Virus record (IMG/VR): IMGVR_UViG_3300042896_000648
Coordinates: 14,549 to 78,548 of that record
Strand: one strand, 5' to 3'
DNA: 64,000 bases
From: a virus
Translations under genes and position numbers: made by a program
The notes under the pieces: model-generated
Told to the model about the DNA's origin: nothing
Databases searched by the model: none
Seen by the model: only the letters and a program-made list of their open reading frames with translations
In this document: in pieces, positions 4,380 through 63,381 of the stretch
Layout of the letters: every line of letters begins with the position of its first letter
How positions within the stretch are numbered: position 1 is the first letter of the stretch

Positions 4380-4607
4380 ATGGAAAATAAAAAGATTCTA
4401 AAATTAGCATTAGAAAAATATGGATATAAATTAGATGATTCAACAATTTTTACTAATAGTTTAATTATACCTGTTTTAGAAGCAATGGATAATGCAAGAT
4501 TAGACCAATGCAATAAAGTTGTAAAAAAAATAGAGCAAAGAACAAACAGAATAGGAATGTTTTATGCAAATGAAGAAAAAACATATAATTTAATTAAAAA
4601 ACTATGA
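4380..4607 (+). CDS. Hypothetical protein
   Basis: Translationally coupled ORF. Confidence 0.55.
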   Translation: MENKKILKLALEKYGYKLDDSTIFTNSLIIPVLEAMDNARLDQCNKVVKKIEQRTNRIGMFYANEEKTYNLIKKL

Positions 4608-5212
4608 GTTCTACAAATAGAAGTAATGCAAGAGATAGTCATATTTCAGATTATTATGTAACGCCAAGTAAGCCTATTTTAAATTTATTTCAGGCACTTA
4701 AAGAAAGTGAATGTTCTGAATTATTTACATTAGATGAAGGAAAATTATTTTGGTGGCATAAATACTTAGACCCATGTGCCGGTGGAGACGAGAAAAATGA
4801 AATGAGTTATCCAAGCGTAATTCAAGGCTTAGGAGTTCATAAAGAATATATTAAAACAATTGATTTTAGAGAAAATTCAAAAGCTGAAATTAAAGCTGAT
4901 TTCTTAAAATGTAATTGGAGTGAAAGATATAAAGTAGTAATTACTAATCCACCTTTTAATATTGCAGAGGAGATTATAAAAAAATCATTTGAATTTGCAG
5001 AAGAAGGTGGATATGTAATTATGCTTTTAAGATTAAACTTTTTTGGATCTAAAAAAAGAAAAGAATTTTGGCAAAACAATATGCCTATTTTAACTTTTGT
5101 CCATAGAGAACGAATTTCATTTACAAATGGACAAACAGATAGTATTGAATATATGCATTGTGTTTGGAAAAAAGGGGTACAACAAAATTTTACAAAACTT
5201 TCAATTATATAA
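4604..5212 (+). CDS. DNA amino-methyltransferase (m6A/m4C)
   Basis: SAM-binding LDPCAG and catalytic ITNPPF. Confidence 0.85.
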   Translation: MSSTNRSNARDSHISDYYVTPSKPILNLFQALKESECSELFTLDEGKLFWWHKYLDPCAGGDEKNEMSYPSVIQGLGVHKEYIKTIDFRENSKAEIKADFLKCNWSERYKVVITNPPFNIAEEIIKKSFEFAEEGGYVIMLLRLNFFGSKKRKEFWQNNMPILTFVHRERISFTNGQTDSIEYMHCVWKKGVQQNFTKLSII

Positions 5213-5219
5213 TTTATTC

Positions 5220-7019
5220 TTAAACTAATTCAATAGCTTCACATTCTATATCTCCACTACTATAAGTAACTTTAGTCATAAAGGCATAAACTAGGTTTCC
5301 GCAATAGTCAAATGATACACATTTTTTTAGCTTAGAGAGCTCAGCGTTTTCTAAGCTAAATTTATATTTAAACTTACCTATTACCGCTTCAGAGCTCAAC
5401 GCACCATTCTCGTCAATTACGCCTTCTATTTGGTCGTGGCTACCAAAGTTATAATTTCCGTCCCCAGAGGCGAACTCTAGGTCAGTTAAGATAAACTTTG
5501 CCATTCTCTTTAAGTTTCTTGTTGGTGTTATTCTCAGGTTCACTGCTCTGTCGGGTTGGTATACATCCGCTCCTATATATTCGTTAGTCTCAGCAGTCAT
5601 CGAGTTTTTAATCACCACTATACTAAAAGTTTGGTCTCTTGCTTGCAGTTTGTTAAGGCATTGATTTATCTCACTCGCACTAGCACTCCAATCATTAAGC
5701 ATCGAAAGTTCCGTACCATTCACCTCACTCTCGTAGTTTCTTGTACCGTTGTACTCGATAGAGCCAAAATTCGTGTTGTCAGCTTTCCAACTATTATACC
5801 CAACTTTCACGTCCGAGTATAGTAGGTCGCTGTTCACTTCTCTAGTTACGTCTATTACTTCTAGGTTATATGGGCGTTCTATCTTCACGAAGTTTTCTCT
5901 TCGGTATATATCCACCTTACTTCCAGATATGTCTATGCTAGTCGGGTATTTATTGTTTAGTTCATCAAACAGCTTAAACAGCGACACATTTATAGTTGAA
6001 ACCTTATTTTGCAATCCTTCATTACTCGTAAGGAAGATGTCGAATACCTCGCTGTCGAACAAGTATGTTCTTAAACTTATAGCTCCTTTACTTGCACGAT
6101 TAATAATTGAGTTGAAGGCGCTTCTTAGCGAAATAGCTTTAACATCTCGCCACTCAATCGCACTTAATTCGCACTTAATTATCGAAATACCGTCGCTAGC
6201 GTCATCATATACGTATTGAAAAGTCGAACTATTAGCACTCTCAATATAAAGGGTTATCTGTTCGCCAGGTTGCACCTGAAGTGTATGGTTCACCGTAATG
6301 GTGTGTTGAACCAAAACTGAGGTTAAGGGAAATGAATCTATTTCATAAATATCAGAATCAGATTTAAGATACACGGTAAAGTCTCCTAAATCAGCGGAGC
6401 TCGCATTTACTTTAATACTGCCGGTAAGTTCAATACATTGCTCTACGTCAGAAGTGAAGAACGGAGCGGAATCGTGTGCCATTACAGACCTAGATGTCGA
6501 GTCTACGAAGTTGTCGTCCGTCTTCACTAGGGGTATGTAGTGGTTAGGGCTTGCTGTTACTATACTCGCTACGTTTTCTCCAAGTACTTTGAAGTTTACT
6601 ATACTAGGTAGGTTTCTGATTGGTACTTTTATAGTCTCCGTTAACTCAACGGGGTATAGTACCTTATCCTTATTTCTTAATAGTTCTCCACCGCCACTAG
6701 GCTTAAACCCAATTTCTAAAGTACAGCAGGTAGGTTCGCCATACATCGAAAAATCTAGGAGTAGACTGATGGTCTGTTCGTTAATTATCGTTACTCTTAC
6801 TACTGCATCAAATCCATCTCTCTCAAACACCCTCTTAATGTATCCTACTATTTCCTCGTTTTCAATAGTTATCTTAGTTGAAGAAGACTCATTCGAAAAT
6901 CCGTATCCATCATTATTCCAATAGCCCCAATAGGTCTCAGAGATGAATCTTTCTATCTTAATAGCATCGAAACCAACTATATCACTTTCAGGAAGTTCGA
7001 AGTTATCTATTAGTATCAT
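5220..7019 (-). CDS. Putative minor tail/baseplate structural protein (true start probably ATG 7019, MILIDNF)
   Basis: Long beta-rich ORF with the late-type promoter motif at 7031-7055. The ORF-track extension to 7211 overlaps the promoters and the opposite gene. Confidence 0.55.
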   Translation of the reverse strand: MILIDNFELPESDIVGFDAIKIERFISETYWGYWNNDGYGFSNESSSTKITIENEEIVGYIKRVFERDGFDAVVRVTIINEQTISLLLDFSMYGEPTCCTLEIGFKPSGGGELLRNKDKVLYPVELTETIKVPIRNLPSIVNFKVLGENVASIVTASPNHYIPLVKTDDNFVDSTSRSVMAHDSAPFFTSDVEQCIELTGSIKVNASSADLGDFTVYLKSDSDIYEIDSFPLTSVLVQHTITVNHTLQVQPGEQITLYIESANSSTFQYVYDDASDGISIIKCELSAIEWRDVKAISLRSAFNSIINRASKGAISLRTYLFDSEVFDIFLTSNEGLQNKVSTINVSLFKLFDELNNKYPTSIDISGSKVDIYRRENFVKIERPYNLEVIDVTREVNSDLLYSDVKVGYNSWKADNTNFGSIEYNGTRNYESEVNGTELSMLNDWSASASEINQCLNKLQARDQTFSIVVIKNSMTAETNEYIGADVYQPDRAVNLRITPTRNLKRMAKFILTDLEFASGDGNYNFGSHDQIEGVIDENGALSSEAVIGKFKYKFSLENAELSKLKKCVSFDYCGNLVYAFMTKVTYSSGDIECEAIELV

Positions 7020-7030
7020 AATTTTTTTCA

Positions 7031-7089
7031 CAAAAATAAAAAATATTTTGCGGTTTACTTGTTTTCTATTTTTCGGTACATTACATTTG
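7031..7089. promoter_or_regulatory. Back-to-back promoter module: late-type (minus, AACC-N13-TATTTTTG) and early-type (plus, TTG..TACATTTG)
   Basis: A near-identical module occurs at 27639-27698. Confidence 0.6.
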
Positions 7090-7110
7090 TAACAACAAAA
7101 AACAAATGAT

Positions 7111-7752
7111 ATGAAAAAATACAAAGAGATATTAAAAATGTTCTGCTCTAACGATATGATTAGATATTGGATGAAAGACCCATTTATTATGGGAGATAAA
7201 GTTATTGCCACAGATGGAGTATTTTTAGTTGCAGTAGATAAAGATGGGTTAGACTATAACCAGCTTAGTTCTGATTATGTTTCAAAGGTAAGTAAATCTT
7301 ACCCAATGGATTATAATATGAATTTCCCTATTTCTGTTGAAGAATTAAAGTCTCTACTATCTGCCGTACCTTTAATAGAAGAAGAAGAAACTAAACCTTG
7401 TGACGAATGTAATGGTGTAGGAGAGGTTACTTGGGAGTATGATACTAGCGAAAGGACGTACGAAAAAGAATTAGATTGCCCTGTCTGTAATGGAGAAGGC
7501 GAGATTATTATAATCAAAAAAGGAGTAATGGTTAGAAGCCCTTTAGACCTTTGTAAGATAGGTAATTGCAGTTTTTTTATAGATAAAATAGACCAATTAA
7601 TCAAGGTAGCGGAAATCCTAGAAGTTAATGAGATTATTCAAGTAAATCAAACCTTAAATAATAAGGCCAATATGTTTAAAATTGGTGATATAGAAATCAT
7701 GTTAATGCCAACAATTATAAATAAAGACGACTTTTATCACTTTGTATTATGA
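7111..7752 (+). CDS. Protein with DnaJ-type Zn finger insertion
   Basis: CDECNGVG and CPVCNGEG (two CxxCxGxG). Confidence 0.6.
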   Translation: MKKYKEILKMFCSNDMIRYWMKDPFIMGDKVIATDGVFLVAVDKDGLDYNQLSSDYVSKVSKSYPMDYNMNFPISVEELKSLLSAVPLIEEEETKPCDECNGVGEVTWEYDTSERTYEKELDCPVCNGEGEIIIIKKGVMVRSPLDLCKIGNCSFFIDKIDQLIKVAEILEVNEIIQVNQTLNNKANMFKIGDIEIMLMPTIINKDDFYHFVL

Positions 7753-10146
7753 GAAACTTAAAAGAATTGTATGAGATAGTACTAGAGAATTTTGATTATT
7801 ATATTGGGAAGGGTGGAATTTGTAATATTAGCAACCAGTTATCTTTTTATGAAATAATCACAATCCAAGAATCAATTTTACTTGATGGCGACATCGAGGC
7901 GCAAACAGGAGCAGTATTCACATACGCTTGGCCTCGCACTCCCGCAGGAAATATAGAAAGAAAAGAATTTATTAAAAAACGAATAAACGAACTATGATAC
8001 TAAAAATCCTACTAGGCGAGGAAGAAACTTCGCCATCAAAACCAGAAGTTGTTATCATTAACAACGTCAAGTACAATAAGCAACTCTTTGAGCGGTTTAT
8101 GGAAATCTCGGAATGTACTGATTATAAGGATAAGGAATATCCCTCTCTTGATAATGTTAAGACTACCGTAGTAGACGATAGGCCAAACTTTTCAGATTGG
8201 TACACCGAGCTGAAGACAAAGGAACTCGATTATGATTGGGATACGATTCAAGAAGATTGGATGAAAACAAATATTGGATTAATTCAATTTCTTAAACTAA
8301 ACTATAACATACCTACAAAAAAATGAAAATCTTAATCAGTATCATCATTACAATCCTAGTCTTGTTTGGGCTTGCTGTCCGCCAAGCACAGAAAGATTTA
8401 AAAAACATCAAAGACATAGATAATCACGATTTATTCCAATGAAAGAAACAATAGAAGAGTTTGCAGATAAAACGTATCCTTATTATGGAGACACAGAATT
8501 AAGGGAGGCTGTTATAATTGGTGCAAATTGGCAATCTGAAAGAAGTTATAGTGAGGAAGATTTAAAACAAGCTTACTTAGATGGATGTGAAATACAATTA
8601 AATAATATCTATCATTTAGATAAATGGTTTAAAAAATTTAAAAAAAAATAATATGAAAGAAACAATAGAAGAAGCTACTGAAAAGTATTTAAAAACAGTT
8701 AAAGGATTAAATTATAGAAACTTATATGATTTAAGTAATCAGCAAGAATTAGCATTTAAAGATGGTGCTAATTGGCAATTAGAAAGAATGTATAGTGATA
8801 TGGAGGAATATGCAACATTCTGTATAGAATGCGATAGAAATGGACTATCTCCATTACAAGCAAAAGGATATTTCGAACAATTAAGACAATATAAATAAAA
8901 TATGAAAAACGGAGAAAGAAACCAAGAAAACCTTCCTATTGAGGCTAGCCCTTGTAAGTACATACGCAAGTTCGGCATTGCGTGGGATTATACCGAAAAG
9001 CCTAAAGACGTTTTTATTAACGCTCTTACATTTGACGATAATCGAATATACCCTTATTCTTGTCACGACATTATGTATCCCGAAAGGCATTACGCTAACT
9101 TTCGTAAGGTCAAGGAATATGCCGGTCAAATAGAGTTTACTGATGAAAAAATTCAAGAGATTATGGCACATGACGAATCAGGAAAATCATTAGATCGTAT
9201 TTACGCACTCATTAACAGAGTGAACTATAATCTAGTTTACTTTAATAAAGAGAAGGTCGACTTCATATTGAACGATAACCGCAAAAGACTGATTCACAAC
9301 CTAACAAATCTGAAATCAGAAGAGAATCGTGCAGAATTATATTTAACAAACATTTTAATGAGAATGATATGAGATACTTAATAATAACAAAGGATTACGA
9401 ACCTTACTATACTAATGATATGGAAGAGTTCGATTTTGACAGTGACCTATACGTCATTAACTTAATCACAGACGAATACTATAACGGTAAGGTTTGGAAG
9501 AAAATTCAAAAAATTATATGATAAAGATAATAACAAAAATTGAAGACGATGACTTGCTAGAATATCTATTTAAGAGAGTTATGGAATTTAATAGAAAGAA
9601 AGATAGCTATGGTATGGGTTTTATGGTAGGGCAAAGCACTATAATTACAAAGCAACATAATAGGGATTTTTATGAAAGATATTCGTGTAATATCTATAAA
9701 GTTAAGTCAGGAATAATAGCAAGATTAAGTAAAATAAAAGAATAATGGAATTAGAAATAAAACACTTAGCGCCATATTTGCCGTATGGATTAACATTTTT
9801 AATAGAAAGTAAACACGATAGTAAAGAGCCTAATATTAATGAATTAAAGTCAATAGACATTGGGTTGAAAATGGTAAATTTTGGATGGGGTAATGCAAAA
9901 TATTTTACTGAAATAAGACCAATATTGAAAAATAAGATACATTTATATAATCTTCAAATTGAAATACTAAATAAGTGGGGAGATGGATTATCTGATAAAG
10001 CTAAGGGGTATTGGCTAAAAGAAATGATAGAAAATATGATTAATTCAACATACGATTCATTAAGGTTTGATGAAGTAGAGTTTATGCTAGAAAACCATAT
10101 TGATGTATTTGGCCTAATAGATAAAGGACTTGCAATAAAAATATAA
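7749..10146 (+). other. Island of small early-type hypothetical ORFs (7749, 7994, 8439, 8653, 8902, 9518, 9745)
   Basis: Tightly packed co-oriented ORFs. 8439 and 8653 share the MKETIEE..GANWQ.ER motif. Confidence 0.6.
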
Positions 10147-10186
10147 AATAACTTGCAAATATAATTATTATTCATTACCTTTGTTT

Positions 10187-10525
10187 ATGGTTTTTACAGA
10201 AGAAATAGCTAAAGAGCTTCAAGGCTCTCTTAAATTACACAACATTACGGTTACCAGGTGGCGGGAGCGAGGTTTTATCCCTAAAAAGTATTTCTATACA
10301 TCAGAGATACAGATTAAGGGCATGAATTTACGGGAGGCTAGAAAGTATCTTAATCTTAGCCAAAACGTAGTTTGCTCGCTCCTAGCCAGAGAAGGTTGTA
10401 GTATAGCCCGCAACACCTTGTTAGTTTGGGAAAAAGGCACGCACCGGCCACAATTAAAGAATTTGAAGGCGTTGAAGAAAATCTACAACGAGTTAATAAA
10501 CAAGAAACAAGAATGGAAGAAATAA
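10187..10525 (+). CDS. XRE-type HTH transcriptional regulator, probably leaderless
   Basis: NLREARKYLNLSQ..ARNTLLVWEKG.HRP HTH. ATG lies 3 nt after the promoter element TACCTTTG (10176-10183). Confidence 0.75.
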   Translation: MVFTEEIAKELQGSLKLHNITVTRWRERGFIPKKYFYTSEIQIKGMNLREARKYLNLSQNVVCSLLAREGCSIARNTLLVWEKGTHRPQLKNLKALKKIYNELINKKQEWKK

Positions 10526-10983
10526 CACAAGTACCAATCACGGGCGATATGAGTATCCCTGTTACATTAATTAATGATTGTTCCGCTTATAATTTAAAGT
10601 CGGGCTTTATGTTTAATGCATACATATCCAAGTTTAAACTAGGTAGTGGCTATCAGATATACTCAGCACTAGGCAATAAGGTTTTCCATAAGTCTTTTAA
10701 TGATTTAGATGGTCTTTTAAAGATAGTTGAAATAAATCAAGTATAAAAATATGGAAGAAATAACAGACAAATACCCTGGTACAAGAGTTGGTTCACAGGT
10801 ATTTGGTGAAAATAAAATAAACAAAATAAGTATATTAGAGCAATACATCAAAGAGTATTATAAGCCCCGCTTAATTAGGGTTATGAAGCAAAACGGTACT
10901 TATGATTATTTTGAGAAAAGTGTTTCAAGGTCGCTTGATTTTCAGTTTTATCGGTTTTGGAAGTGGTTGTTTAAATAAAAAAT

Positions 10984-11088
10984 AGTAAGATGGCGGAATG
11001 GTAGACGCTACTACGTGATGTTCATGTATGCCTATATTATTTAGGTTTCGCTTACATGGCTTTACAGGTTCGATTCCTGTTCTTACTA
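10984..11088 (+). ncRNA. tRNA-like RNA with a non-canonical anticodon/variable region
   Basis: Perfect acceptor AGTAAGA/TCTTACT, Leu-type D-arm GGCGGAATGGTAGACGC and T-arm ACAGG-TTCGATT-CCTGT. The central 45 nt do not form a standard anticodon arm. Confidence 0.7.
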
Positions 11089-11106
11089 CTAAAATAAATA
11101 ATAAAA

Positions 11107-12126
11107 ATGAAAGAAATACAATTATTAAACGAGAAATCGCAAATATCATGGTGTGATTGGTCAAATGGTACTTACACTCCACGCATTCAGTGGAACAGGT
11201 ATTCTCATAAGTCTGATAGGTTTTACTTTGCCAAACCACAAGATACAGTAGTTACAGCAATTGGAATAACTTCGGTTATAGATAAGTCTTTTGGTGAATC
11301 AAAATTTCTTCGTGAATGGAAAGATGCCAGAATCTCATGGAAGGAGGACTTAAATAAAATGTCGCTTTATGGCACTATGCTTCATGCAGCGGTTGGCGAA
11401 ATGGCTAAAGGCCAAGAAATTTCAGATGTTTGGTTTCGCCTTGCAGATGAATATTTTGATAAGAAAATTCAGTTCAAAAAAGACATTCTTTCTATTAAGA
11501 AGTGGATTATTGATTATAATGTAGAGTTCATTTTTATTGAAGGGATACTTGCTAAACAATTTAAGCTACCAAATGGTTACTCTTATATTTGCTCAGCAAT
11601 AGACTTTTTCTGCGAAATAGACCTAGTTACTAAGGTGAAATCAGAAGAGCCTGATGGAGAATATGTAAGGGGTGATAAGAAAGGTCAAGTTAAAACTAAG
11701 ACTGTCACTACTGAAACAAAGTCAAGAGTTAAGGCAATTATTGACCTTAAAAGTAATTTTGACCAAAAGGAATCTAAATCATTCTTTGATTCACATAAAT
11801 ACCAATTAATCTTTGGTCGTGATTTAATAGCACATGAATTTAACTTACCTAAAGAGGATATTAGAATGTTTAATATTTCCCCTCTCGGTTGGAATAAAGA
11901 GCCAAAGTTTACGTTATTCGAGCACGTTATAGGCATTAATCGTCAAGGTTTTTCAGACGAATGGATACTTAACAACAGAATAAATACAGCAATAGCCGAA
12001 GGTCAGGTAACGCCAAATGGTCTTACATATACTATTAGCGATAAGCTAAGTTTAGGCAGTGTAGATGATATTATTATCCAAAGCTACGAAGAGAAAGCAG
12101 AAGAACTTTTAAGAAATAGGAATTAA
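11107..12126 (+). CDS. PD-(D/E)XK family exonuclease
   Basis: GTMLH, E..L, ID, IIDLKS and YQL motifs of lambda-exo/Cas4-like phage nucleases. Confidence 0.65.
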   Translation: MKEIQLLNEKSQISWCDWSNGTYTPRIQWNRYSHKSDRFYFAKPQDTVVTAIGITSVIDKSFGESKFLREWKDARISWKEDLNKMSLYGTMLHAAVGEMAKGQEISDVWFRLADEYFDKKIQFKKDILSIKKWIIDYNVEFIFIEGILAKQFKLPNGYSYICSAIDFFCEIDLVTKVKSEEPDGEYVRGDKKGQVKTKTVTTETKSRVKAIIDLKSNFDQKESKSFFDSHKYQLIFGRDLIAHEFNLPKEDIRMFNISPLGWNKEPKFTLFEHVIGINRQGFSDEWILNNRINTAIAEGQVTPNGLTYTISDKLSLGSVDDIIIQSYEEKAEELLRNRN

Positions 12127-12290
12127 TAACATACGCCCTTGTACCGTTGCCTATTTCGCATACGCTCAATTTTGCGGTTGGTTTAGACATAGTGTTTCTG
12201 TATTTGCTTTATTAATTCCGAGTTCATTAGCAAAAAGATTCACATGGGGGTTGGCTACTTACCAGAAAGTAGTTAAAACTTAAAAAAAAT

Positions 12291-14018
12291 ATGGAAGAAT
12301 TAAATGATTTAATCGGTAACTACAAATTAAAAATTGAATTACTAAAAGAGTTATCTAAAGCTATGAATATAAGTAATTCATACAGATTAGAAGTTAAACT
12401 TGGTTGCTATAGGAGTTTTTTACAAGATTTAGAATTATTGGCAAAAGATATTGAAGAAAATAAATTATGAATAATTTTTTAGAAGAACTTAAATGTTATT
12501 TTGCAACAACTCCAAAAGAAAAAATAATGGAGGATTGGAATAAAAGTGTAGAATTCAATAAGGTTGGAATTACTATTGACGAGTTTTTGAAAAATTCAAA
12601 CTTAAAACACAAAAAAATGGAACAAATAGAATACCTTATTGGGACATACGAGAATAGAGTTAAAGTACTAAAAGATTTAATTGAAAAAGACGATTCAGAA
12701 AGACTAAAAGTTAAGCTTGGTTGTTATCGTTCATTTTTAAATGATTTAAAAAACGCAAGAAAATCTGCATCAATGTTTTAATTATGAAAATAAGAGAATA
12801 TATAACAAATAAAAATACAACAACTGATAGCGATACATTGCTTGAATTATATGAGCAATTAAAAGAATATAAGTCTGTACCTGATTTAACTAATTTAAAT
12901 AGTATAGATAAAGACTTGGATGAATTATTCTTTAAAGTTAATGATAAAGCTAATATTTTAAATAGATTAATTAATCGTTCTATTAGTCTAGTATTAGAAG
13001 ATATTGACGAAATAGATTGCGGATTCTTAAATAGAAAAATACCACCTCATATTAAGAGTAAATTATGAAAACTAAAGAAAAGGCAAATGAGTTAGTATTA
13101 AAATATTTAAAACTTCAAGAAGAAGGTAGTTTAAATTGGTTTCATAAAATATTGGCTAAACAATGCGCAATTATTGCAGTTAATGAAATTGTTGAATTTA
13201 TGAGAATGGATGATGAATTTCACGATGATTGCCACATGGCTAATACGCATTGGGTTATGTATTGGGATGAAGTTAAAAAAGAAATAGAAAAATTATGACA
13301 GCAAAAGACAAATCACAAGAACTAGTTGGTAAAATGTTACTAAAACACGAAATACCTTATTATTTAGCTAAGGAATGTGCATTAATAGCGGTTGATGAAA
13401 TATTAAATTTAATGATAAAAACTTTTAAATGGGATGTTAAATATAATGGAAATGTCGAATATTGGCAAAAAGTTAAAGAAGAAATAAATAAATTATGAAA
13501 TACTTACTTATATTCCTTCTTGGCTGTTCTAATCCAGAGGTTATTTGTTATCAAAAATCAACTTTTTGGGGTTTAGATAAGTATTCAGGGCACGATGGTT
13601 TTCCGCAATACGACATTAAGGAAACAGTCTGTAACCCAAGCAACACTCTTGATACTATTTCATGGGAAGATTTCGTTATCTTTCAGTACGATACCGCTAC
13701 CAACCGGTTAAAACTTGGCAATACAGTTAAACGAAAATTAATTACTACTTATACAAGATTATGAAAGTTATAGAAGAGCAAATTATTATAGAGGAAAAAG
13801 AAATAAAATTCAATCAAAAATTTATTGATTTGCTTCAAGCTTACTTAAATGATGGATATAGCGAAATATCTTGTAGTGAAATATATCTTTATAAATATAG
13901 GTCAGAGACAGACAAAGAATGGCAAGATAGACTATTTAGAATTTCAGAGGCTAATAAGCTAGTAGGTAAGGTAGAATATCAACAATATCTTAAACTAAAA
14001 GAAAAATACGAAAAATAA
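12291..14018 (+). other. Island of small ORFs including paralog pairs (12291/12618, 13065/13295) and lipoprotein-like 13495
   Basis: Shared VKLGCYRSFL motif and AK.CA.IAV.EI..YW..VK.EI.KL motif. ORF 12291-12470 (59 aa) was read by hand. Confidence 0.6.
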
Positions 14019-14055: not shown

Positions 14056-14730
14056 ATGGCTGCACAGCAAAACAACACAACCAACGGTAGTACTAATTAC
14101 TACAACATTTCTTACGGTAAGTTAAATTCTAAGGTAAAGGAAATACCTAATAATACTACCGAAATCACAGAATCGGAGTTAAAGGAAAAAACTTTAGCTG
14201 TAGAAAATGTGGATTTACGCAACAAGTACTTAAATAAAGGGAAAGGTGAAAGACCTTATGTTCAATTTTTTGATTCTATTACAGGATCTATTCAGTCGGT
14301 TGAAAAACAAGAATCAGACAATGGCACTTCACTCGCCATTACATTAAGAGACACTGACTTAGATAGTTCTATTGTACAGGTAAAGTTTTACTCAAAGTAC
14401 TCAGAGAATCTGCTTAATAGGCTAATGAACTGTAAGCTTTCTGGCGATGTATATTTTCAGCCTTATGCTATTCCAAATGAATCTGTAATAGATGGTAGGA
14501 AAATTAAATTTTATACGCAAGGTGTTCTTGTTAAAGAAAACGGAATTAAGGTAGAGCCTTTCTATAAGGCAGATTCAACTGTAATGCCAGCCACACAACA
14601 AGTTAAAGTTGGAGGCAAGGCATCTACATCAAGGGATGCAAGATTAGACTTCCTATTCGATAAGTTCATGGAGAAGTTCGAAAGTACAGGTAAGTCTGAA
14701 GAAGACGATTCAAGTTCACTTCCTTTTTAA
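14056..14730 (+). CDS. Putative single-stranded DNA-binding protein
   Basis: Beta-rich body and acidic C-terminal tail EEDDSSSLPF typical of SSBs, followed by a terminator. Confidence 0.55.
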   Translation: MAAQQNNTTNGSTNYYNISYGKLNSKVKEIPNNTTEITESELKEKTLAVENVDLRNKYLNKGKGERPYVQFFDSITGSIQSVEKQESDNGTSLAITLRDTDLDSSIVQVKFYSKYSENLLNRLMNCKLSGDVYFQPYAIPNESVIDGRKIKFYTQGVLVKENGIKVEPFYKADSTVMPATQQVKVGGKASTSRDARLDFLFDKFMEKFESTGKSEEDDSSSLPF

Positions 14731-16205: not shown

Positions 16206-17037
16206 TCATATCTAAGTAATTCTTCTTTTATTTTATTTATTTTTCCATATATTTCAACTCTTGTTTTTTTGCTTCTTTCATAGTCTTTTTCTGTAGCCCA
16301 AACCATAGTTCTTTCATTTAGTACAGAAAAGTAATTGAGCAACGCCACCAGTTCACTTGGTGGTAATCCTTCTATTCTTCTTTTTGTTTCAAAGGCCTCC
16401 TTTATCTCTCCACCACACATAATTACTTCGTATGCTATTTGATTTTCCATTTATATATTCCCTTCAATTGATATAAGTCCTTTTCTATTCAATTCAGATG
16501 CTAATGACATAAATAATGCCATTGTAGCTTCAGTACTTAAATTTACAACAGTTGTTACACTTTTTCTTTCTACAATGTGACCTGCCCTTACACTATAATC
16601 TTCATCTGTAACTAATGATTTGAATTTAATACTATAATCGCCATTATCTTTACTTAATGTCATTATCCTTCTATTCTTGATTTTGCAAACTGTCGCATTT
16701 CCAAATACTGTTCTTTCTATTTCCATGTTATTTAATCATTATTTATGATTTCGATTATTTTTCTTAAACTTGTTAAACTTAAGCTCATATTACCATACTG
16801 CGTAATTTTACTTCTTATTTCACTCTGTAATTTATAAATTTCTTTTTCATCTAAAATACATTGCTTATTTACATAAAGTTGTGTTTTATTTGAATACTCA
16901 GTATCGTATTTTAATGTTTCTTTAGAAAATCTACCTCTGTGATTTTTACATTCAAAATATTTATTTCCAATTTTAATTACCTCGTATTCATTCAAGTCTT
17001 TGCTGTATAATACTTGTCCTATTTTCAATATTTCCAT
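16202..17037 (-). other. Three small hypothetical ORFs (16202-16450, 16451-16726, 16732-17037)
   Basis: Packed co-oriented ORFs. Confidence 0.6.
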
Positions 17038-17042
17038 TTTAT

Positions 17043-17636
17043 TTATTTATAAATTCCTATTTCTTTATTATATTGTTCACGCAATTCTTGTTGTTCACGT
17101 TTCGTATACACACTCCCTTGTCTTTGAAGTTCCTTTAGTATCTTATACGCTTTAGTGTGTGCTATTTTTAGCTCTTCTTTGTCATGTTTAAGGTCTTTAT
17201 ATACTTGTCTTAGGCTTTCTATATACTCGGTGTATTCAGCTCCGTATCTGGCAGTTAATCCTAATCTATACTCGATTAAGTTTGCGCTTAAATGCATATT
17301 ACAATGTACGCATTGGCCATGTATGTTATGTAGGTTAAAGGTTATGTTCTTATTGTTACCACTAGGGTAGTAATGCCCTCCTTGTTCTACTTTTCCTACA
17401 CAGCTTATGCAACTCTGCTCTCGGTCTATTAGTCTAGCTATGTGGTTTATAGTTTTCTGAAGTTTAATCATACAGTCTTTTACTGTTTCTGTTTTTTCTT
17501 CAAGTACCTTTTTCCTTTTTTTCCAACCATCGCTGTCTAGTTTTTCACGCCCTATTTTTATAGCACATTCTATACAGAATTTCTGCGTTGTTTTGTATTG
17601 AAAAAACTCCTCGCCACATTCTTTACATTTTTTCAT
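17043..17636 (-). CDS. ninG: NinG/Rap-like recombination endonuclease
   Basis: CKECG..C, RD..CISC, GHYY, FNLHNIHGQCVHCN..LSANL.EYR pattern. Confidence 0.8.
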   Translation of the reverse strand: MKKCKECGEEFFQYKTTQKFCIECAIKIGREKLDSDGWKKRKKVLEEKTETVKDCMIKLQKTINHIARLIDREQSCISCVGKVEQGGHYYPSGNNKNITFNLHNIHGQCVHCNMHLSANLIEYRLGLTARYGAEYTEYIESLRQVYKDLKHDKEELKIAHTKAYKILKELQRQGSVYTKREQQELREQYNKEIGIYK

Positions 17637-17978
17637 TTACTTCGAATGTTAATAGTTATATTTTCGACAACTTGTGATTTAAGATATTGAAAGTTAGTTT
17701 GTTATGATATATTAATACATATAGTAGTTCTAATCAAGCCTTTGCCTCGGCTCTTTCGGTGTTGGTTGGCACTCAATTTTTAATATTTTTTGCCAACGCT
17801 CTTTTAAAAGTATGTAACTAATATATAATCATCAGCAGGTACATAAACACCGTTGTTATATTTGACTTTTCCAAATGCTTTATTTCTAGCATCTAACTCA
17901 TTTTCTGCATGAACTAATATATATTCAGGTGATGCATATTGCCATGTTTTTACTTTAAATAAAAAAGCTTTCATATAA

Positions 17979-18290
17979 TTAGTTTTTTAATTTTTCAATT
18001 GCGTTAATAGCTGCTTCATTAGCCTCATTTTCTGTTTTAAAAGAGCCTATTCGAATATTAACAATGAACCTTTCTTTTGATTTATCATAAAAGCAGTATT
18101 TTTTATTTTTATTGGTAGATAATTCAGAAAGATTTTTTTCAACATCTAGTCCAGCTCTAATTACGGCTTTAGCCATCTTATAAGCACGAATTGCATCTAT
18201 TTCATTGTCAAATATTCCAAGCAAGTAACTTTCTTTTTTATATCTAATTTGCCCGTGATACTTATCTTTTCTTTTAAAATATCCATTCAT
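17979..18290 (-). CDS. AP2-like DNA-binding domain protein (cassette cargo)
   Basis: Y.GQIR..YLLGIFDNEIDAIRAY and a second IGSFKTENEA repeat. Confidence 0.65.
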   Translation of the reverse strand: MNGYFKRKDKYHGQIRYKKESYLLGIFDNEIDAIRAYKMAKAVIRAGLDVEKNLSELSTNKNKKYCFYDKSKERFIVNIRIGSFKTENEANEAAINAIEKLKN

Positions 18291-18476
18291 AATTCCTGCG
18301 AGCTATCGCCCGTTTGCTATTCTAAAAAATATTAAAAATTAAATATTGACTATTTACTGGTTAAAAGGCACTAAGCGGCCAGCTTAGAACATGGTATTGT
18401 GGCAATAAAAAGCCCACACACTAGCCATAAACGCACATTTTTTACTGACCACAACACCCCGCCGTTATAGGGCATT

Positions 18477-18617
18477 TCAATTACCTATATTAAACCTTGT
18501 CCAATTTCCAGAACCGTATTCTTTATTTATTTCAAACTCCCATTTATGTCTAGGTTCATTGGTGTAAAATGAACCAATAAAAATATTTCCATTATATACT
18601 TCTAATTTTGTCCACAT
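18477..18617 (-). CDS. 46-aa cassette ORF (MWTKLEVYNG...)
   Basis: Read by hand. It fills the space between two attC-like sites. Confidence 0.5.
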   Translation of the reverse strand: MWTKLEVYNGNIFIGSFYTNEPRHKWEFEINKEYGSGNWTRFNIGN

Positions 18618-18718
18618 AACTAAAAACGCCCTATAACATGGCATACACAAAAGCGGGGCGGAACGCTTATCATGTATGTTCGGGTTAAAGAAGCCCCGCC
18701 TTCGTGTATGCTTTGACG

Positions 18719-18868
18719 TTACCTTTTACAATACCACTCACAAATAGTTTCACCATCCTTCTTCTTGAAGTCAAACTCACAGTACGCTTGCCAATAGCTA
18801 GGCGTTGCCGTCTTTCTATAGCAGTCTTTAAGTTCACACTTTTTGTTGGTACACATTGTTATATCCAT
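18719..18868 (-). CDS. Small Cys-rich protein (MDITMCTNKKC...)
   Basis: Read by hand. The TAA stop overlaps the TAAC core of the attC-like site. Confidence 0.55.
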   Translation of the reverse strand: MDITMCTNKKCELKDCYRKTATPSYWQAYCEFDFKKKDGETICEWYCKR

Positions 18869-18889
18869 AATTAAAAATATTTTAATGTT

Positions 18890-19222
18890 TTAGTCTTCCA
18901 TTAAAAAATCGTAAAGGTCTCCGCTTGTAGCTAGGCATATACCCGTCCCATTGCTTCTGTTCGCTACATCTTTCTTCCACTTCATTCCGTACTCTAGTTC
19001 ATACATAAAATACATTATCCAATCGCCATCGTCTTGCATAGCATTAATCAGTAGTTCCATTAAGGCTTGGTAAGTCTTATTATTGTAGCACATTACTGTG
19101 GAATCAGGAAACATCTTTTCAAATGATTTTGCAAATTCTTTTTCCGCTCGTTCTTGTAGTCGTATCTGCTCTATTGTGTAGCAGAATAGGTCTTTTGTGA
19201 TTTTTAGTTTTCCTTTTTTCAT
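18890..19222 (-). CDS. Hypothetical protein
   Basis: ORF coupled to the upstream methyltransferase. Confidence 0.55.
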   Translation of the reverse strand: MKKGKLKITKDLFCYTIEQIRLQERAEKEFAKSFEKMFPDSTVMCYNNKTYQALMELLINAMQDDGDWIMYFMYELEYGMKWKKDVANRSNGTGICLATSGDLYDFLMED

Positions 19223-20010
19223 TTTATTTCAGGTATTTGTTCTTTTAAATATTTATAAATTTTCCATGTCTGAATTTTAGGTGAAGAAATAAATGGATAT
19301 AAGTTTTTCCAATCTGTATTTTTCATCACTTCTAAAATCTTTTCTCTATATATTTCATTTTTAATAATAATATAGTTTTCTTGGCAAAATGTTCCTATTT
19401 CTTTCACTTCCTTACCAATACTTGCACCATATGTATTCATTGCAAAATGAAATATTTCAGGTTTTTTATATGTACCACCTCTTCTATATTCACCGACAAA
19501 TACATCGTTTAGTTTGTAATCTACTGCTTTTGTATTTACGCCATTTTCAGGTCTTTTATATATATTAAAGCAACATAATAATTTAATGCCACTATATTCA
19601 ATCAATGGTAATACCTCTGAACAAATCAAATCAAACTCATACATTTGTTGGTTATTTTGGTATTGGCTTACAGGTAGAATAAAAGAAATATAATCTCCAA
19701 TTTTACAACATTTTTTATAAAAAGCAACACTTAAAGTATTTCGTGTTCCAAAAGGCGGATTACCAATGAATAACCTTCCTTTTTTGTAAGGCAATTCAAG
19801 TTTTAGAAAATCTTTCTTAATAATACTTTCATGTTCAGGTTCTAAGTCATAAGCAATACAATTTGGTATTTGTAAACTAAAGCTTCCATTACCTGCACTC
19901 GGCTCAATAGTTTCAGTTATTTCTAATCCTAATCCATTTACCAGCTCAATACAATATTTCGAAAGTTCTTTTGATGTATAATATTTATCTAAATTTATTT
20001 TTGCCATCAC
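19219..20010 (-). CDS. DNA amino-methyltransferase
   Basis: IEPSAGNGSF SAM-binding motif and GNPPFG catalytic motif. Confidence 0.85.
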   Translation of the reverse strand: MMAKINLDKYYTSKELSKYCIELVNGLGLEITETIEPSAGNGSFSLQIPNCIAYDLEPEHESIIKKDFLKLELPYKKGRLFIGNPPFGTRNTLSVAFYKKCCKIGDYISFILPVSQYQNNQQMYEFDLICSEVLPLIEYSGIKLLCCFNIYKRPENGVNTKAVDYKLNDVFVGEYRRGGTYKKPEIFHFAMNTYGASIGKEVKEIGTFCQENYIIIKNEIYREKILEVMKNTDWKNLYPFISSPKIQTWKIYKYLKEQIPEIK

Positions 20011-59287: not shown

Positions 59288-59895
59288 TAACGGAACGCAA
59301 CTAAACGCAGTTTAAATTTAATAATATGGATGAACAAATAAATGGTGTAGTTGAAACTATCCAACAACTTGAAAAGGAAAACGCAGAGCTTAAATTGCGT
59401 TTAGTTGCTGTTATGCAACGAAGTGAACAGTTAGAAGCCTTTATTGATGAATATATAGAAGCTTGGGAAGATGGTATGGCTGGTGATAGTGGATTAGTAT
59501 ATGATGCAAGGAAGTTAAAGGCTTCTAATTGCACATAACTTTAAAAATAACCGCAGTTTGCCTATACGGTTAGTTGATTCGGCAAATTGAGGTTATTGAT
59601 TGTTATATTCTCGGCTTTTTTTCACTAACAAATTAAATAAAAAATCATGAAAATAGTAAAGTACAAATGCAATCTTTGTCAAGAAGAAAAAGAAAGAGCA
59701 GAATTGACTGCTTTTTACTTTAAATGCGATATTATTCCTCAAAGATACGTTTTGGATAAAAGCAAAATAGATGAATGTGATAAGCATATTTGCGAAAAAT
59801 GTATAGAAACAATAATTGCAAATATTATTTAGCAAAATTATAGCTTGAGTAGCTTTCGCTAGAAAGTTGCTCAAGCTGGAATATAACAACTATAT
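59288..59895 (-). mobile_element. Integron-like cassette array 2 (two attC-like sites plus terminal half-site)
   Basis: Inverted repeats 59297-59315/59390-59408 and 59546-59562/59581-59597 framed by TAAC..GTTA. Cassette ends GTTATG/CATAAC and GTTATATTC/GAATATAAC. Confidence 0.65.
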
Positions 59896-62093: not shown

Positions 62094-62167
62094 GCATTTG
62101 TGGTGAAGTGGTTTAACATCTCGGCTTGCAACACCGATATTCGGGGGTTCGAATCCCTCCAAATGCT
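62094..62167 (+). tRNA. trnC: tRNA-Cys(GCA)
   Basis: GCATTTG/CAAATGC acceptor, loop TTGCAAC, GGTTCGAATCC T-arm, U73 discriminator. No encoded CCA. Confidence 0.85.
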
Positions 62168-62186
62168 CTAACTAAACAACAAGATT

Positions 62187-62339
62187 ATGCCACTAAAGAA
62201 AGGAAAAAAGAATGTTGGTAAAAACATTCGAGAAGAAAAAAGAAAGCACCCTGAAATGAGTGATAAACAAGTACTTGCTATAGCTTTGTCGGCCGCAGGA
62301 GTAAAGAAAAAGAAAAAGAAGAAAAAGAAGAAAGAATGA
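62187..62339 (+). CDS. Small basic protein (MPLKKGKK..QVLAIALS..poly-K)
   Basis: 50-aa ORF read by hand, coupled to ORF 62336. Confidence 0.6.
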   Translation: MPLKKGKKNVGKNIREEKRKHPEMSDKQVLAIALSAAGVKKKKKKKKKKE

Positions 62340-62946
62340 GAAAAGCACACGGTTACATAATCGAAAGAGTTATTTATTATGATAAAGAACTTGGTATTAC
62401 TGATTCATATTCGCAAAATAATAAATATTACGCAACTTTAAAGCACGCAGAAGAAGCAATAAGTAAAATAAGAGAAAATTATCCTACTTGCGAGTTTCGA
62501 TTAGTTGAAATGTTTGAAACCTATACAGGAAAGTGTAGCGAAGGAATACATTGGTATGTTTGGTTTTACGAAAATAATAGGCCGGTAAAAAGAAAGTGTA
62601 GATTTTGTGAAAAAGAAGAAATAATTTTATAAAAATGAATATACCAGAAAATTTACTCGATGATGAAGGTTATCCAACAGAAGAAATACTTGAATTCATT
62701 ACCAAATACGAACCTAATGAGGATATTGAAGACTTCGTGGAACTAATTAGATCTATTTGGTGGCGTAAAGGTTGGGGCTTTAAAAAATATCGGTATAAAG
62801 GCCGAACTAAATTAGAACTACATACAGGCGGTTGGAGCGGTAATGAAGAGATAATGTCAGCCATAGAATCCAATCGCATACTAGGTATTTTCCTTAGGAA
62901 GACTATGTGGAAAAGAGGCGGACATTATTATTATGAATATTTTTAA
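62336..62946 (+). other. Two hypothetical ORFs (62336-62632, 62635-62946)
   Basis: Coupled ORFs. The second has an LHTGGWSGNE..W.RGGHY motif. Confidence 0.6.
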
Positions 62947-62976
62947 AAAATAATTTTTATTTATGATAAATTATAT

Positions 62977-62984
62977 TATATTTG
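62977..62984 (+). promoter_or_regulatory. Promoter -7 element of the tRNA operon (TATATTTG)
   Basis: Consensus match 4 nt before the leader ATG. Confidence 0.7.
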
Positions 62985-62988
62985 CATT

Positions 62989-63039
62989 ATGAAAAGAATT
63001 TTAACATATTGCTATTCTAGTTGGTCGACCAAAAGTTGA
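62989..63039 (+). CDS. Putative attenuator leader peptide MKRILTYCYSSWSTKS
   Basis: 16-codon, probably leaderless ORF with the run TAT TGC TAT TCT AGT TGG TCG. Confidence 0.7.
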   Translation: MKRILTYCYSSWSTKS

Positions 63040-63069
63040 ATCAAGTAGAATATCTGTGTAAAAGCTTAT

Positions 63070-63101
63070 ACCTCCTTGATTCACTTCTTGGAGGTTTTTT
63101 T
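63070..63101 (+). terminator. Conditional (attenuator) terminator before the tRNA operon
   Basis: ACCTCC..GGAGGT plus T-run, overlapped by the alternative helix TGAATCAAG/CTTGATTCA. Confidence 0.75.
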
Positions 63102-63108
63102 ATTATAC

Positions 63109-63181
63109 GCATCTCAATGCTAAGGCAAAGCGAGTTGGTCTCCAAAACCGACTGAATTAGGTTCGATACCTAAGAGGTGTG
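63109..63181 (+). tRNA. trnW: tRNA-Trp(CCA)
   Basis: Cloverleaf with anticodon loop CTCCAAA. Confidence 0.85.
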
Positions 63182-63190
63182 CAGTTATAT

Positions 63191-63272
63191 TGTAAAGTTG
63201 AGCAGGTGGTGAGCAACATAGGTCTGTAAAACCTATCCTTCGGGTGTGCTGGTTCGATTCCAGTCTTTACAA
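63191..63272 (+). tRNA. trnY: tRNA-Tyr(GTA)
   Basis: TGTAAAG/CTTTACA acceptor, loop CTGTAAA, variable arm CCTTCGGG. Confidence 0.88.
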
Positions 63273-63298
63273 CAAGTATCGGTAGGGTACTTAATTAT

Positions 63299-63381
63299 GG
63301 AGGTGGTCTGAATGGACGAAGACACGGTCTTGAAAACCGCTGGCCGTAAAAGGCTTACAGGTTCGATTCCTGTTGCCTCCG
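63299..63381 (+). tRNA. trnS: tRNA-Ser(TGA)
   Basis: GGAGGTG/TGCCTCC acceptor, loop CTTGAAA, long variable arm, G73. Confidence 0.88.

Follow-up and report, generated by a model that had tools for sequence, protein, structure and literature searches.

A probable orphan array of integron-like, hairpin-bounded gene cassettes in a phage from lake water

In a 64-kb stretch of virus DNA, referred to below as the window, two adjacent blocks of sequence on the minus strand (window positions 17705-18721) quite likely form an orphan array of integron-like, hairpin-bounded gene cassettes. The window runs from base 14549 to base 78548 of a virus record that is complete at 78.5 kb and has direct terminal repeats (IMG/VR record IMGVR_UViG_3300042896_000648, called G000 here), and the phage originates from lake water. 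The evidence from the window alone is modest, and the decisive support comes from comparison with other sequences. In unrelated phages, units of the same anatomy, with covarying end boxes and the same asymmetry between strands, are present, absent or re-associated block by block at AAC^G, where the caret marks the limit of a block.

On its coding strand, each unit reads as AAC^G, a spacer, an imperfect hairpin with a long loop, a GTT box, one or more cargo open reading frames (ORFs), and finally a distal box that is complementary to the GTT box and ends in AAC. An earlier note on this DNA had described two imperfect hairpins framed by AAC and GTT, and all the sequences it quoted were found where it had placed them, including the extra unpaired base in one arm of its first hairpin. 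The parts of this array (array 1) are as follows.

18718 to 18720, minus strand: upstream boundary core of unit 1, AAC on the coding strand and GTT on the plus strand.
18624 to 18721, minus strand: folded site of unit 1, consisting of TAAC-G, a TCAAA spacer, hairpin 2, CAT and GTTATAGGGCGTTT.
18641 to 18711, minus strand: hairpin 2, with 19-nt arms (18693-18711 and 18641-18659), a 33-nt loop and the CGAAGG/CTTTTG box.
18624 to 18637, minus strand: GTTATAGGGCGTTT, the GTT box of unit 1, adjoining hairpin 2 through CAT.
18477 to 18617, minus strand: cargo of unit 1, a 46-aa ORF (MWTKLEV...).
18464 to 18477, minus strand: AAATGCCCTATAAC, the distal box of unit 1, which marks the end of this unit.
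18377 to 18463, minus strand: folded site of unit 2, consisting of a G-GCGG spacer, hairpin 1, AT and GTTCTAAGCTGGCC.
18393 to 18458, minus strand: hairpin 1, with one bulged T in one arm and a 26-nt loop.
18377 to 18390, minus strand: GTTCTAAGCTGGCC, the GTT box of unit 2, adjoining hairpin 1 through AT.
17804 to 18290, minus strand: cargo of unit 2, a 103-aa ORF (17979-18290) and a 56-aa ORF (17804-17974).
17727 to 17740, minus strand: GGCTTGATTAGAAC, the distal box of unit 2, which pairs with 18377-18390 by the family rule given below and forms the array end.
17705 to 17726, minus strand: terminal flank after the last AAC, read as TACTATATGTATTAAT... or TACTATATGTAT..., a candidate primary (attI-like) site.

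The offset complementarity on which the earlier note had built its case is longer than it appeared. The match of GTTATAGGGC (18464-18473) to GCCCTATAAC (18628-18637) at 10 of 10 positions is part of a pairing between AAATGCCCTATAAC and the GTT box at 18624-18637 that holds at 13 of 14 positions, with a G.T pair at position 11. Likewise, the match of GTTCTAA (17727-17733) to TTAGAAC (18384-18390) extends to a pattern of 14 positions, namely seven Watson-Crick pairs, G.A, C-G, T.T, G.T and three further Watson-Crick pairs. Because unit 2 thereby fits the box rule of the wider family, it is far better supported than a match of seven out of seven would suggest. When integrated, the distal box of one unit adjoins the hairpin of the next, and only a 5-base core is common to the two.

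At the upstream boundary of unit 1, the TAA stop codon (18719-18721) of a 49-aa ORF (18719-18868) overlaps the core at 18718-18720 inside GGTAAC, as had been pointed out. Similarity to other copies begins directly after the AAC of this core in about 20 contexts, and the crossover would lie at AA^C-G. The folded site of unit 1 is an exact fit to the family pattern and can be aligned with 34 other sites. Neither AAC nor GTT varies at the two window sites or at 35 aligned sites. The consensus RYYYAAC/GTTRRRY is loosely met, since the boxes here consist of GTTA plus variable bases.

The most informative comparisons come from hairpin 2, which recurs with its box pair in about 20 other viral, metagenomic and Flavobacteriaceae contexts at roughly 90-100% identity. 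These copies were located by an exact scan of IMG/VR with one arm of hairpin 2 and then by further scans, which added more viral contigs, two real matches in Flavobacteriaceae genomes and 21 metagenome contigs; a third genome match was set aside as chance. Full copies have a common layout of xxxxAAC^G, spacer, hairpin 2, AAT, GTTATAGGGCG, ORF and (T)AAATGCCCTATAAC^N. Their ORFs are mutually unrelated and range from about 46 to 220 aa, the box preceding the hairpin is different in each context, and the last AAC is followed either by another, different hairpin site or by plain sequence. Similarity among the copies thus breaks at the AAC^G cores, with cargo and flanks differing. For example, loci L017 and L062 show 100% identity between the AAC^G that precedes the hairpin and the AAC^G that follows the ORF, with unrelated sequence on either side, and L008 and L046 share a unit at about 95% identity and are likewise unrelated beyond it. 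Given these limits, the hairpin travels with the downstream gene and the distal box. The block that is inherited in both pairs is also the GTT-to-GTT unit of the earlier note, which in its plus-strand parse had cargo followed by a hairpin to the right. We considered whether the hairpin might instead belong to the gene upstream and rejected this, as it is inherited with the downstream GTT box and gene, whereas the upstream AAC box varies.

The site of about 100 nt in G000 is roughly 90% identical to sites in the phages G001 and G002, and no protein in common is detectable by BLASTP between G000 and G001, G002 or the Polaribacter phage P12002L. A common site without common proteins indicates that the element has moved between unrelated phages. 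Half copies of the hairpin 2 site, consisting of the 3' arm and GTTATAGGGCG before a gene, occur in loci L005, L006, L012 and L014 and look like fossil units; in L006 there is a decayed candidate distal box, GGCTATAAC.

Logan contigs from four public sequencing runs (X1-X4) were compared with window positions 16500-19500. X1 is probably the source sample, and X4 is a marine metagenome that contains a relative at about 92% identity. One X4 contig of 1615 nt matches the window over 17039-17729 and continues with 626 nt unlike it, and a second matches from 19142 down to 18724 before it, too, becomes unlike the window. Similarity in X4 therefore ends within a few bases of the outer cores at 17727-17729 and 18718-18720, these boundaries being approximate because the contigs are of low depth. 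Thus the relative keeps both backbone flanks, to 17729 and from 18724, and does not keep the array between them. The earlier note had proposed to look for relatives that lack or swap the unit, and had held that indels ending away from the GTT cores would speak against cassettes; for the array no such indel was seen, the difference in X4 ending near the cores. In a third X4 contig, both untranslated ends of unit 2 are present, but the 495 letters with its ORFs are replaced by 409 others. Pieces of unit 2 were also recovered from the other two runs, at 99-100% identity over 17936-18236 in X2 contigs and at about 97% over 18195-18453 in a 255-nt X3 contig. In these two runs, unit 2 pieces are present at 97-100% identity, and almost nothing else of the phage is found at such identity.

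Beside the array, an X4 contig skips 308 nt (window 16730-17039) that correspond almost exactly to a 101-aa gene (16732-17037), with no AAC and GTT hairpin site there. The neighbourhood of the array thus also has gene-sized indels that arose in some other way.

The units of the window belong to a much larger family. The pattern TAACG-N12/13-CGAAGG...CTTTTG-N10-GTTA is found in 117 IMG/VR stretches, and at 55 of the 58 sites that have more than 1.5 kb of downstream sequence, a complement of at least 8 nt to the GTTA box, ending in AAC, lies further downstream. Different hairpin families have as common fixed features TAACG, CGAAGG, CTTTTG and GTTA, with spacings of 12-13 and 10 nt, and the T before GTTA is invariant even though the search did not impose it. 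The geometry of a site is a foot stem, four or five unpaired bases on the 5' side only, and a 19-bp stem that includes the CGAAGG/CTTTTG box with two G.T pairs. Compensatory changes are seen at 11 of the 24 pairs of the hairpin stem. The pairing of the two boxes was compared in 65 units and covaries over 14 positions. Positions 1-9 are Watson-Crick, with several types of pair at 5, 6, 7 and 9; at position 10 the pair is A-T or T.T, and at position 11 it is G.T in 60 units; and positions 12-14 are again Watson-Crick and covarying. The G.T wobble is retained on the coding strand.

Units of the family are 312-2919 nt long (median 662), and 57 of 63 hold a single ORF. In the phage arrays, ORFs lie on the strand of the site, which is the better-folding strand with the G.T pairs, by 75 to 1. 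The cargo is mostly unique, and the commonest gene families in array loci are DNA methyltransferases (N6_N4 in 32 loci, MT-A70 and C5). NinG, ERF and replication genes are neighbours in these loci, NinG being present in nine. One IMG/VR contig of 13.6 kb (L013) contains, at 6400-13640 on its plus strand, at least 12 consecutive small genes that are each bounded by sites, some of which are minimal, with 11-bp stems and 11-nt loops. The detector scored 11 sites in it against 0.25 in shuffled sequences.

Strand preference runs through the whole family, where the coding strand folds better at 68 of 71 sites. In array 1 the minus strand gives the better fold for both hairpins, since mismatched bases form G.T on it but A.C on the plus strand. 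On that strand hairpin 2 reaches a z score of -2.9 as DNA and -4.1 as RNA. Joining unit 1 into a circle improves the predicted fold to -28.2 kcal/mol (z -6.3), compared with -19.0 as integrated, and for unit 2 the corresponding values are -18.0 and -16.2 kcal/mol. When the whole genome was scanned, four AACG-hairpin-GTT sites were found against 1.2 expected from shuffles, and a complement of at least 7 nt lay downstream of three sites, where 0.3 would be expected.

A second array is present in the window, on the opposite strand.

59288 to 59887, plus strand (coding): second array of the same kind (array 2), with two units.
59297 to 59408, plus strand: hairpin of site A of array 2, with TAACGGAAC before it and T-GTTATG after it.
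59546 to 59597, plus strand: hairpin of site B of array 2, followed by GTTATATTC.

At both sites the plus strand folds better, and GTTATATTC pairs at nine of nine positions with GAATATAAC at 59879-59887. The end flank of this array is AACTATATATAC. A 70-aa ORF (59326-59538) begins within the 74-nt loop of hairpin A and reads through the 3' arm and the GTT box. A terminator-like hairpin (59837-59882, plus strand) stands just before the distal box of the last unit, and a small one (18371-18387, minus strand) overlaps the GTT box of unit 2 in array 1.

Array ends have a character of their own. At 52 ends from the family, G and a hairpin do not come after the last AAC; in their place stand T (81%) and a half-site, AAC^T-nnTn[GT][AC]T[AT]nnCG[CA]AA. 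This half-site is non-palindromic and resembles the spacer plus one hairpin arm. The two array ends of the window, TACTATATGTAT and AACTATATATAC, fit its first half only; the terminal flank of array 1 agrees at motif positions 1, 4, 6, 7, 8 and 15 and is without the CG at 12-13. Both ends have AAC-(T/A)ACTATAT in common, which is weak evidence by itself because a third occurrence lies inside a gene. No recurrent gene family was found after the 52 array ends.

Some arrays elsewhere do have a candidate enzyme beside them. A search with Xer-like queries revealed a tyrosine recombinase of about 270-300 aa that occupies 4522-5436 of locus L142 and begins 54 nt past the array end, another directly after the array in L063, and more near the arrays in L131 and L113. 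The best match of the phage array-linked recombinases is to the Xer model NF040815 (212 and 177 bits). Against the integron-integrase model, array-linked enzymes score 149-221 bits where the cut-off is 265, with the match split into two stretches, and no integron integrase (TIGR02249) exceeds the cut-off in 401 Flavobacteriaceae genomes. Homologues of the Xer-like recombinase are present in two Flavobacteriaceae chromosomes, each beside an array that obeys the box rule, including the G.T pair.

G006:C6:865107-882366 (Salinimicrobium flavum KCTC 42585): chromosomal array of at least 15 units.
G361:C10:456709-472601: chromosomal array of at least 17 units.

The Xer-like genes (396 or 375 aa) lie at the array end and read toward the array, in the same direction as the cassette genes; that of Salinimicrobium flavum is at G006:C6:881176-882366. 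In these chromosomal arrays, ORFs are opposite to the G.T strand (19 to 1 and 17 to 1), which is the orientation of classical integrons, and the phage arrays are thus the inverted form. The CGAAGG-type pattern occurs in just one of the 401 Flavobacteriaceae genomes, a count that does not show chromosomes to be without arrays because the chromosomal arrays use other hairpin families.

These observations suggest how the units might move. Each would be a mobile block made of a 5' folded recombination site, the cargo gene or genes, and the distal box. Closing a unit into a circle would pair the distal box with its own hairpin-side box and so complete a site with a foot stem of 14 positions, a one-sided bulge of 4-5 nt, a 19-bp stem and a variable loop. 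For unit 1 the predicted circle joins 18464 to 18717 (...GCCCTATAAC^GTCAAAGCATAC...), and for unit 2 it joins 17727 to 18463. A tyrosine recombinase may cut and join units at AA^C-G on the folded coding strand, as at an integron attC site, and units would enter at the half-site that closes the array. Since the phage carries no recombinase, the enzyme would have to be supplied in trans by the host or by a second phage infecting the same cell, and might be of the Xer-like kind found beside arrays elsewhere. Such action in trans on phage arrays is plausible. The earlier note had invoked a tyrosine recombinase from the host or from outside its view; the rest of the complete genome supplies none, and the candidates found elsewhere are not of integron-integrase grade. 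Its observation that no integrase was in view holds for the entire 78.5 kb.

Several points weigh against a cassette system of this kind. No tyrosine recombinase (PF00589) was found in the 78.5-kb genome, and no gene is common to all array-bearing phages. Among the Logan contigs, we observed no excised circle, empty site or recombination event. Hairpin 1 taken alone folds no better than shuffles (z -0.3 to -1.0) and has no other copy in IMG/VR by an exact 20-base pattern. The geometry appears to depart from that of canonical attC sites, which have an R box, a central spacer with 5-6 unpaired nt on either side and an L box with extrahelical G and T; in the sites described here there is a one-sided 4-5-nt bulge, and fixed G.T pairs take the place of the extrahelical bases. 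The one published site with this grammar that was assayed, P12002L_attC1, was the sole failure among six tested with IntI1 (PMC9892861). Finally, the strong co-orientation of genes and sites would also fit a function in RNA.

That last point leads to the main rival, an RNA-level role combined with ordinary recombination, in which the hairpins and the box pairing serve in termination, processing or stability of mRNA. Recombination between the conserved motifs, homologous or by microhomology, would then reshuffle the units, an idea already put forward for the promoter-terminator (PeSL) cassettes of T4-type phages. We judge this unlikely. All wobble pairs are compatible with G.U on the sense strand, hairpin 2 folds best as RNA, both boxes of a unit lie in one transcript and could pair without any circle, and a terminator-like hairpin follows hairpin 1; PeSLs demonstrate, moreover, that regulatory motifs can mediate the shuffling of phage genes (PMC2839356, PMC4122927). 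However, only five bases (TAACG and TGTTA) are common to different site families, too short a stretch for breakpoints of homologous recombination to fall on one and the same base in about 20 contexts. The chromosomal arrays have the same grammar and carry genes opposite to the G.T strand, so which strand folds does not depend on the mRNA. The dedicated tyrosine recombinase and the non-palindromic half-site at array ends also count against this account, the loops of 26-87 nt are unlike those of intrinsic terminators, and there is neither a Bacteroidota-type promoter motif between hairpin and ORF nor a match in Rfam.

Movement by an HUH (Y1) transposase, with the units as non-autonomous elements of the IS200/IS605 type that use subterminal hairpins and insert 3' of TAAC, seems considerably less probable still. 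It would account for strand-specific imperfect hairpins near one end, for every unit lying 3' of TAAC and itself ending in TAAC, and for the lack of any visible target duplication, and a circular single-stranded intermediate would unite the ends. Yet a unit has a single hairpin in place of a left-hand and a right-hand one, the end boxes vary and covary where transposase sites would be fixed, and the enzyme found next to arrays is a tyrosine recombinase of the Xer/IntI type; neither a Y1 transposase (PF01797) nor a serine recombinase was found in five array-bearing phage genomes, the window's included. We give almost no credence to the idea that cassette logic is absent and that an AT-rich phage simply has inverted repeats by chance and intergenic hairpins of the ordinary sort. 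The poor folding of hairpin 1 would be expected under it, a 7-mer complement within 700 nt is not rare, and one of the four scored genome sites (near genome position 42.7 kb) is probably due to chance. The comparative data already contradict it, however: the hairpin 2 unit is conserved in some 20 other contexts, the family rule with G.T at position 11 fits both units of array 1, and sites with a complement of at least 7 nt are in excess over shuffles. The integron-like cassette array remains the preferred reading.

The closest published case is the attC cluster without integrase in P12002L. Qi et al. (2023; PMC9892861) reported such clusters (CALINs) in 17 phages, including this one, with two predicted sites per phage, and IntI1 recombined five of the six sites tested; bottom-strand primers for attC sites are given in the same paper. 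In its figure 2B legend, HattCI called a site of the present grammar in P12002L. Two further sites of this grammar flank the methyltransferase gp54 and the Mom-like gp53 of that phage, with offset complementarity at eight of eight positions. The arrays described here are like that of P12002L in the Flavobacteriaceae host family, in the lack of an integrase, in the grammar TAAC-G...hairpin...T-GTTA on the coding strand and in the frequency of methyltransferase cargo. They depart from the published account in the fixed G.T within an extended covarying box, which is not described there. In the literature searched, we found no published description of units being exchanged among phages, a covarying box of this extended kind, a half-site at array ends, the inverted genes or the Xer-like partner.

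Likeness to classical integrons, and above all to sedentary chromosomal ones with homogeneous attC sites such as the Vibrio cholerae repeats, takes several forms. In both, cassettes mostly hold one ORF and measure 0.3-1.5 kb, imperfect hairpins have AAC and GTT cores, and the distal box is complementary to the box at the other end of the cassette. One strand folds better, one site family is found on many unrelated ORFs, a simple non-hairpin site, here a candidate one, stands at one array end, and a tyrosine recombinase lies beside some arrays. In integrons, the crossover is made at the AAC on the 5' side of the folded attC bottom strand. The cassette interpretation of the earlier note was thus supported by comparison, with the amendment that the genes are inverted relative to classical cassettes and the folding strand is the coding strand. 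In classical integrons the gene is on the top strand with attC at its 3' end, and the bottom strand, which folds, is antisense to it. Here, in contrast, the site precedes the gene, the two chromosomal arrays being the ones that follow the classical orientation, and the foot stem has 14 positions rather than seven. A complete integron has IntI, a tyrosine recombinase with an extra domain specific to it, next to attI. The associated enzyme here falls below the integron-integrase cut-off with no integrase of IntI grade found, and the chromosomal Xer-like gene is co-directional with the cassette genes, unlike the divergent classical intI. Integrons have been reported in Bacteroidota in a review.

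Two other systems invite comparison. PeSL cassettes are flanked by motifs that join a conserved early promoter to a terminator stem-loop and are thought to act through homologous recombination (PMC2839356, PMC4122927). The resemblance lies in conserved stem-loops that bracket small genes, most of them uncharacterised, in the variable regions of virulent phages, and in the swapping of these genes as modules. The present units differ in having a shared core of only five bases, covarying end boxes of their own and a tyrosine recombinase with some arrays; no promoter-like motif was seen between hairpin and start codon, and no run of T after the full stem. It is established that a host Xer-type recombinase can act on a hairpin formed from one strand of phage DNA, as in integration of the CTX-phi type. 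The candidate enzyme here is likewise Xer-like, but in that system a whole phage genome enters chromosomal dif, whereas here single genes would be exchanged within phage genomes.

In the cargo of array 1, the 46-aa ORF of unit 1 has no family match in PHROG or Pfam. Residues 5-43 of the 103-aa ORF of unit 2 match only PHROG families annotated as HNH endonuclease, the likeness at its N-terminus being to the part of phage HNH endonucleases that binds DNA, and there is no meaningful Pfam match; the AP2 protein proposed earlier as cargo was not confirmed. The arrays are located in the early/recombination gene region, and genes at 16.2-26.8 kb of the window are oriented on the minus strand. Just downstream of array 1 is a gene for a NinG/Rap junction endonuclease (17043-17636, minus strand). 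We considered NinG as a common enzyme and rejected it: it adjoins the array here and in P12002L (L020, 36311-36973) and is absent from G001, G002 and G408. Two genes upstream of array 1, and outside any recognisable unit, a 263-aa protein (19219-20010, minus strand) has weak methyltransferase-like PHROG matches and none in Pfam.

The phage itself is isolated in the databases. A GenBank-derived phage collection that included P12002L showed no DNA similarity to the window, near or distant, a terminase query led to no related IMG/VR locus, and genome G409 was rejected as a relative of G000. The best NinG homologue among 5.8 billion proteins has 58% identity and sits on a 1.3-kb contig; an identical NinG is present on a second contig. 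These searches thus yielded no full-length relative with an empty site for alignment. Rfam, searched at E values up to 1, gave nothing in 17600-18900, and its only matches in the window are three tRNA genes (62094-63381, plus strand).

Given their place in an early/recombination region, and a family cargo of orphan DNA methyltransferases and ORFans, the arrays are probably a means by which Flavobacteriaceae phages shuffle their accessory and anti-defence genes. A broader proposal, to which we would give about even chances, is that these phages, many of them virulent and mutually unrelated, share a phage-adapted form of integron. The coding strand would carry the site ahead of the gene, and the strand that folds would thereby be exposed as the phage DNA is transcribed and replicated. 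Exchange would be carried out by a small Xer-like recombinase that is encoded by only a minority of phages and of host chromosomes, and it would draw on a common pool of methyltransferases and small anti-defence genes that is distinct from the chromosomal pool of opposite gene orientation.

The window itself contributes two short, recombinase-less arrays of a class that has received only brief mention in print. Together with their relatives, they represent a natural variant of the attC rule set, in which the folding strand carries the gene, the foot stem is long and covaries, G.T pairs are fixed and the enzyme is Xer-like. Its parts are small enough for direct testing, and it is a variant through which the origin of integron cassettes and their sites could be approached. 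If the mechanism is true, it is site-specific recombination, and not rare illegitimate events, that carries single genes from one virulent phage to another unrelated one, which would explain part of the mosaicism of these genomes, their ORFan-rich 'early' regions and the spread of orphan methyltransferases.

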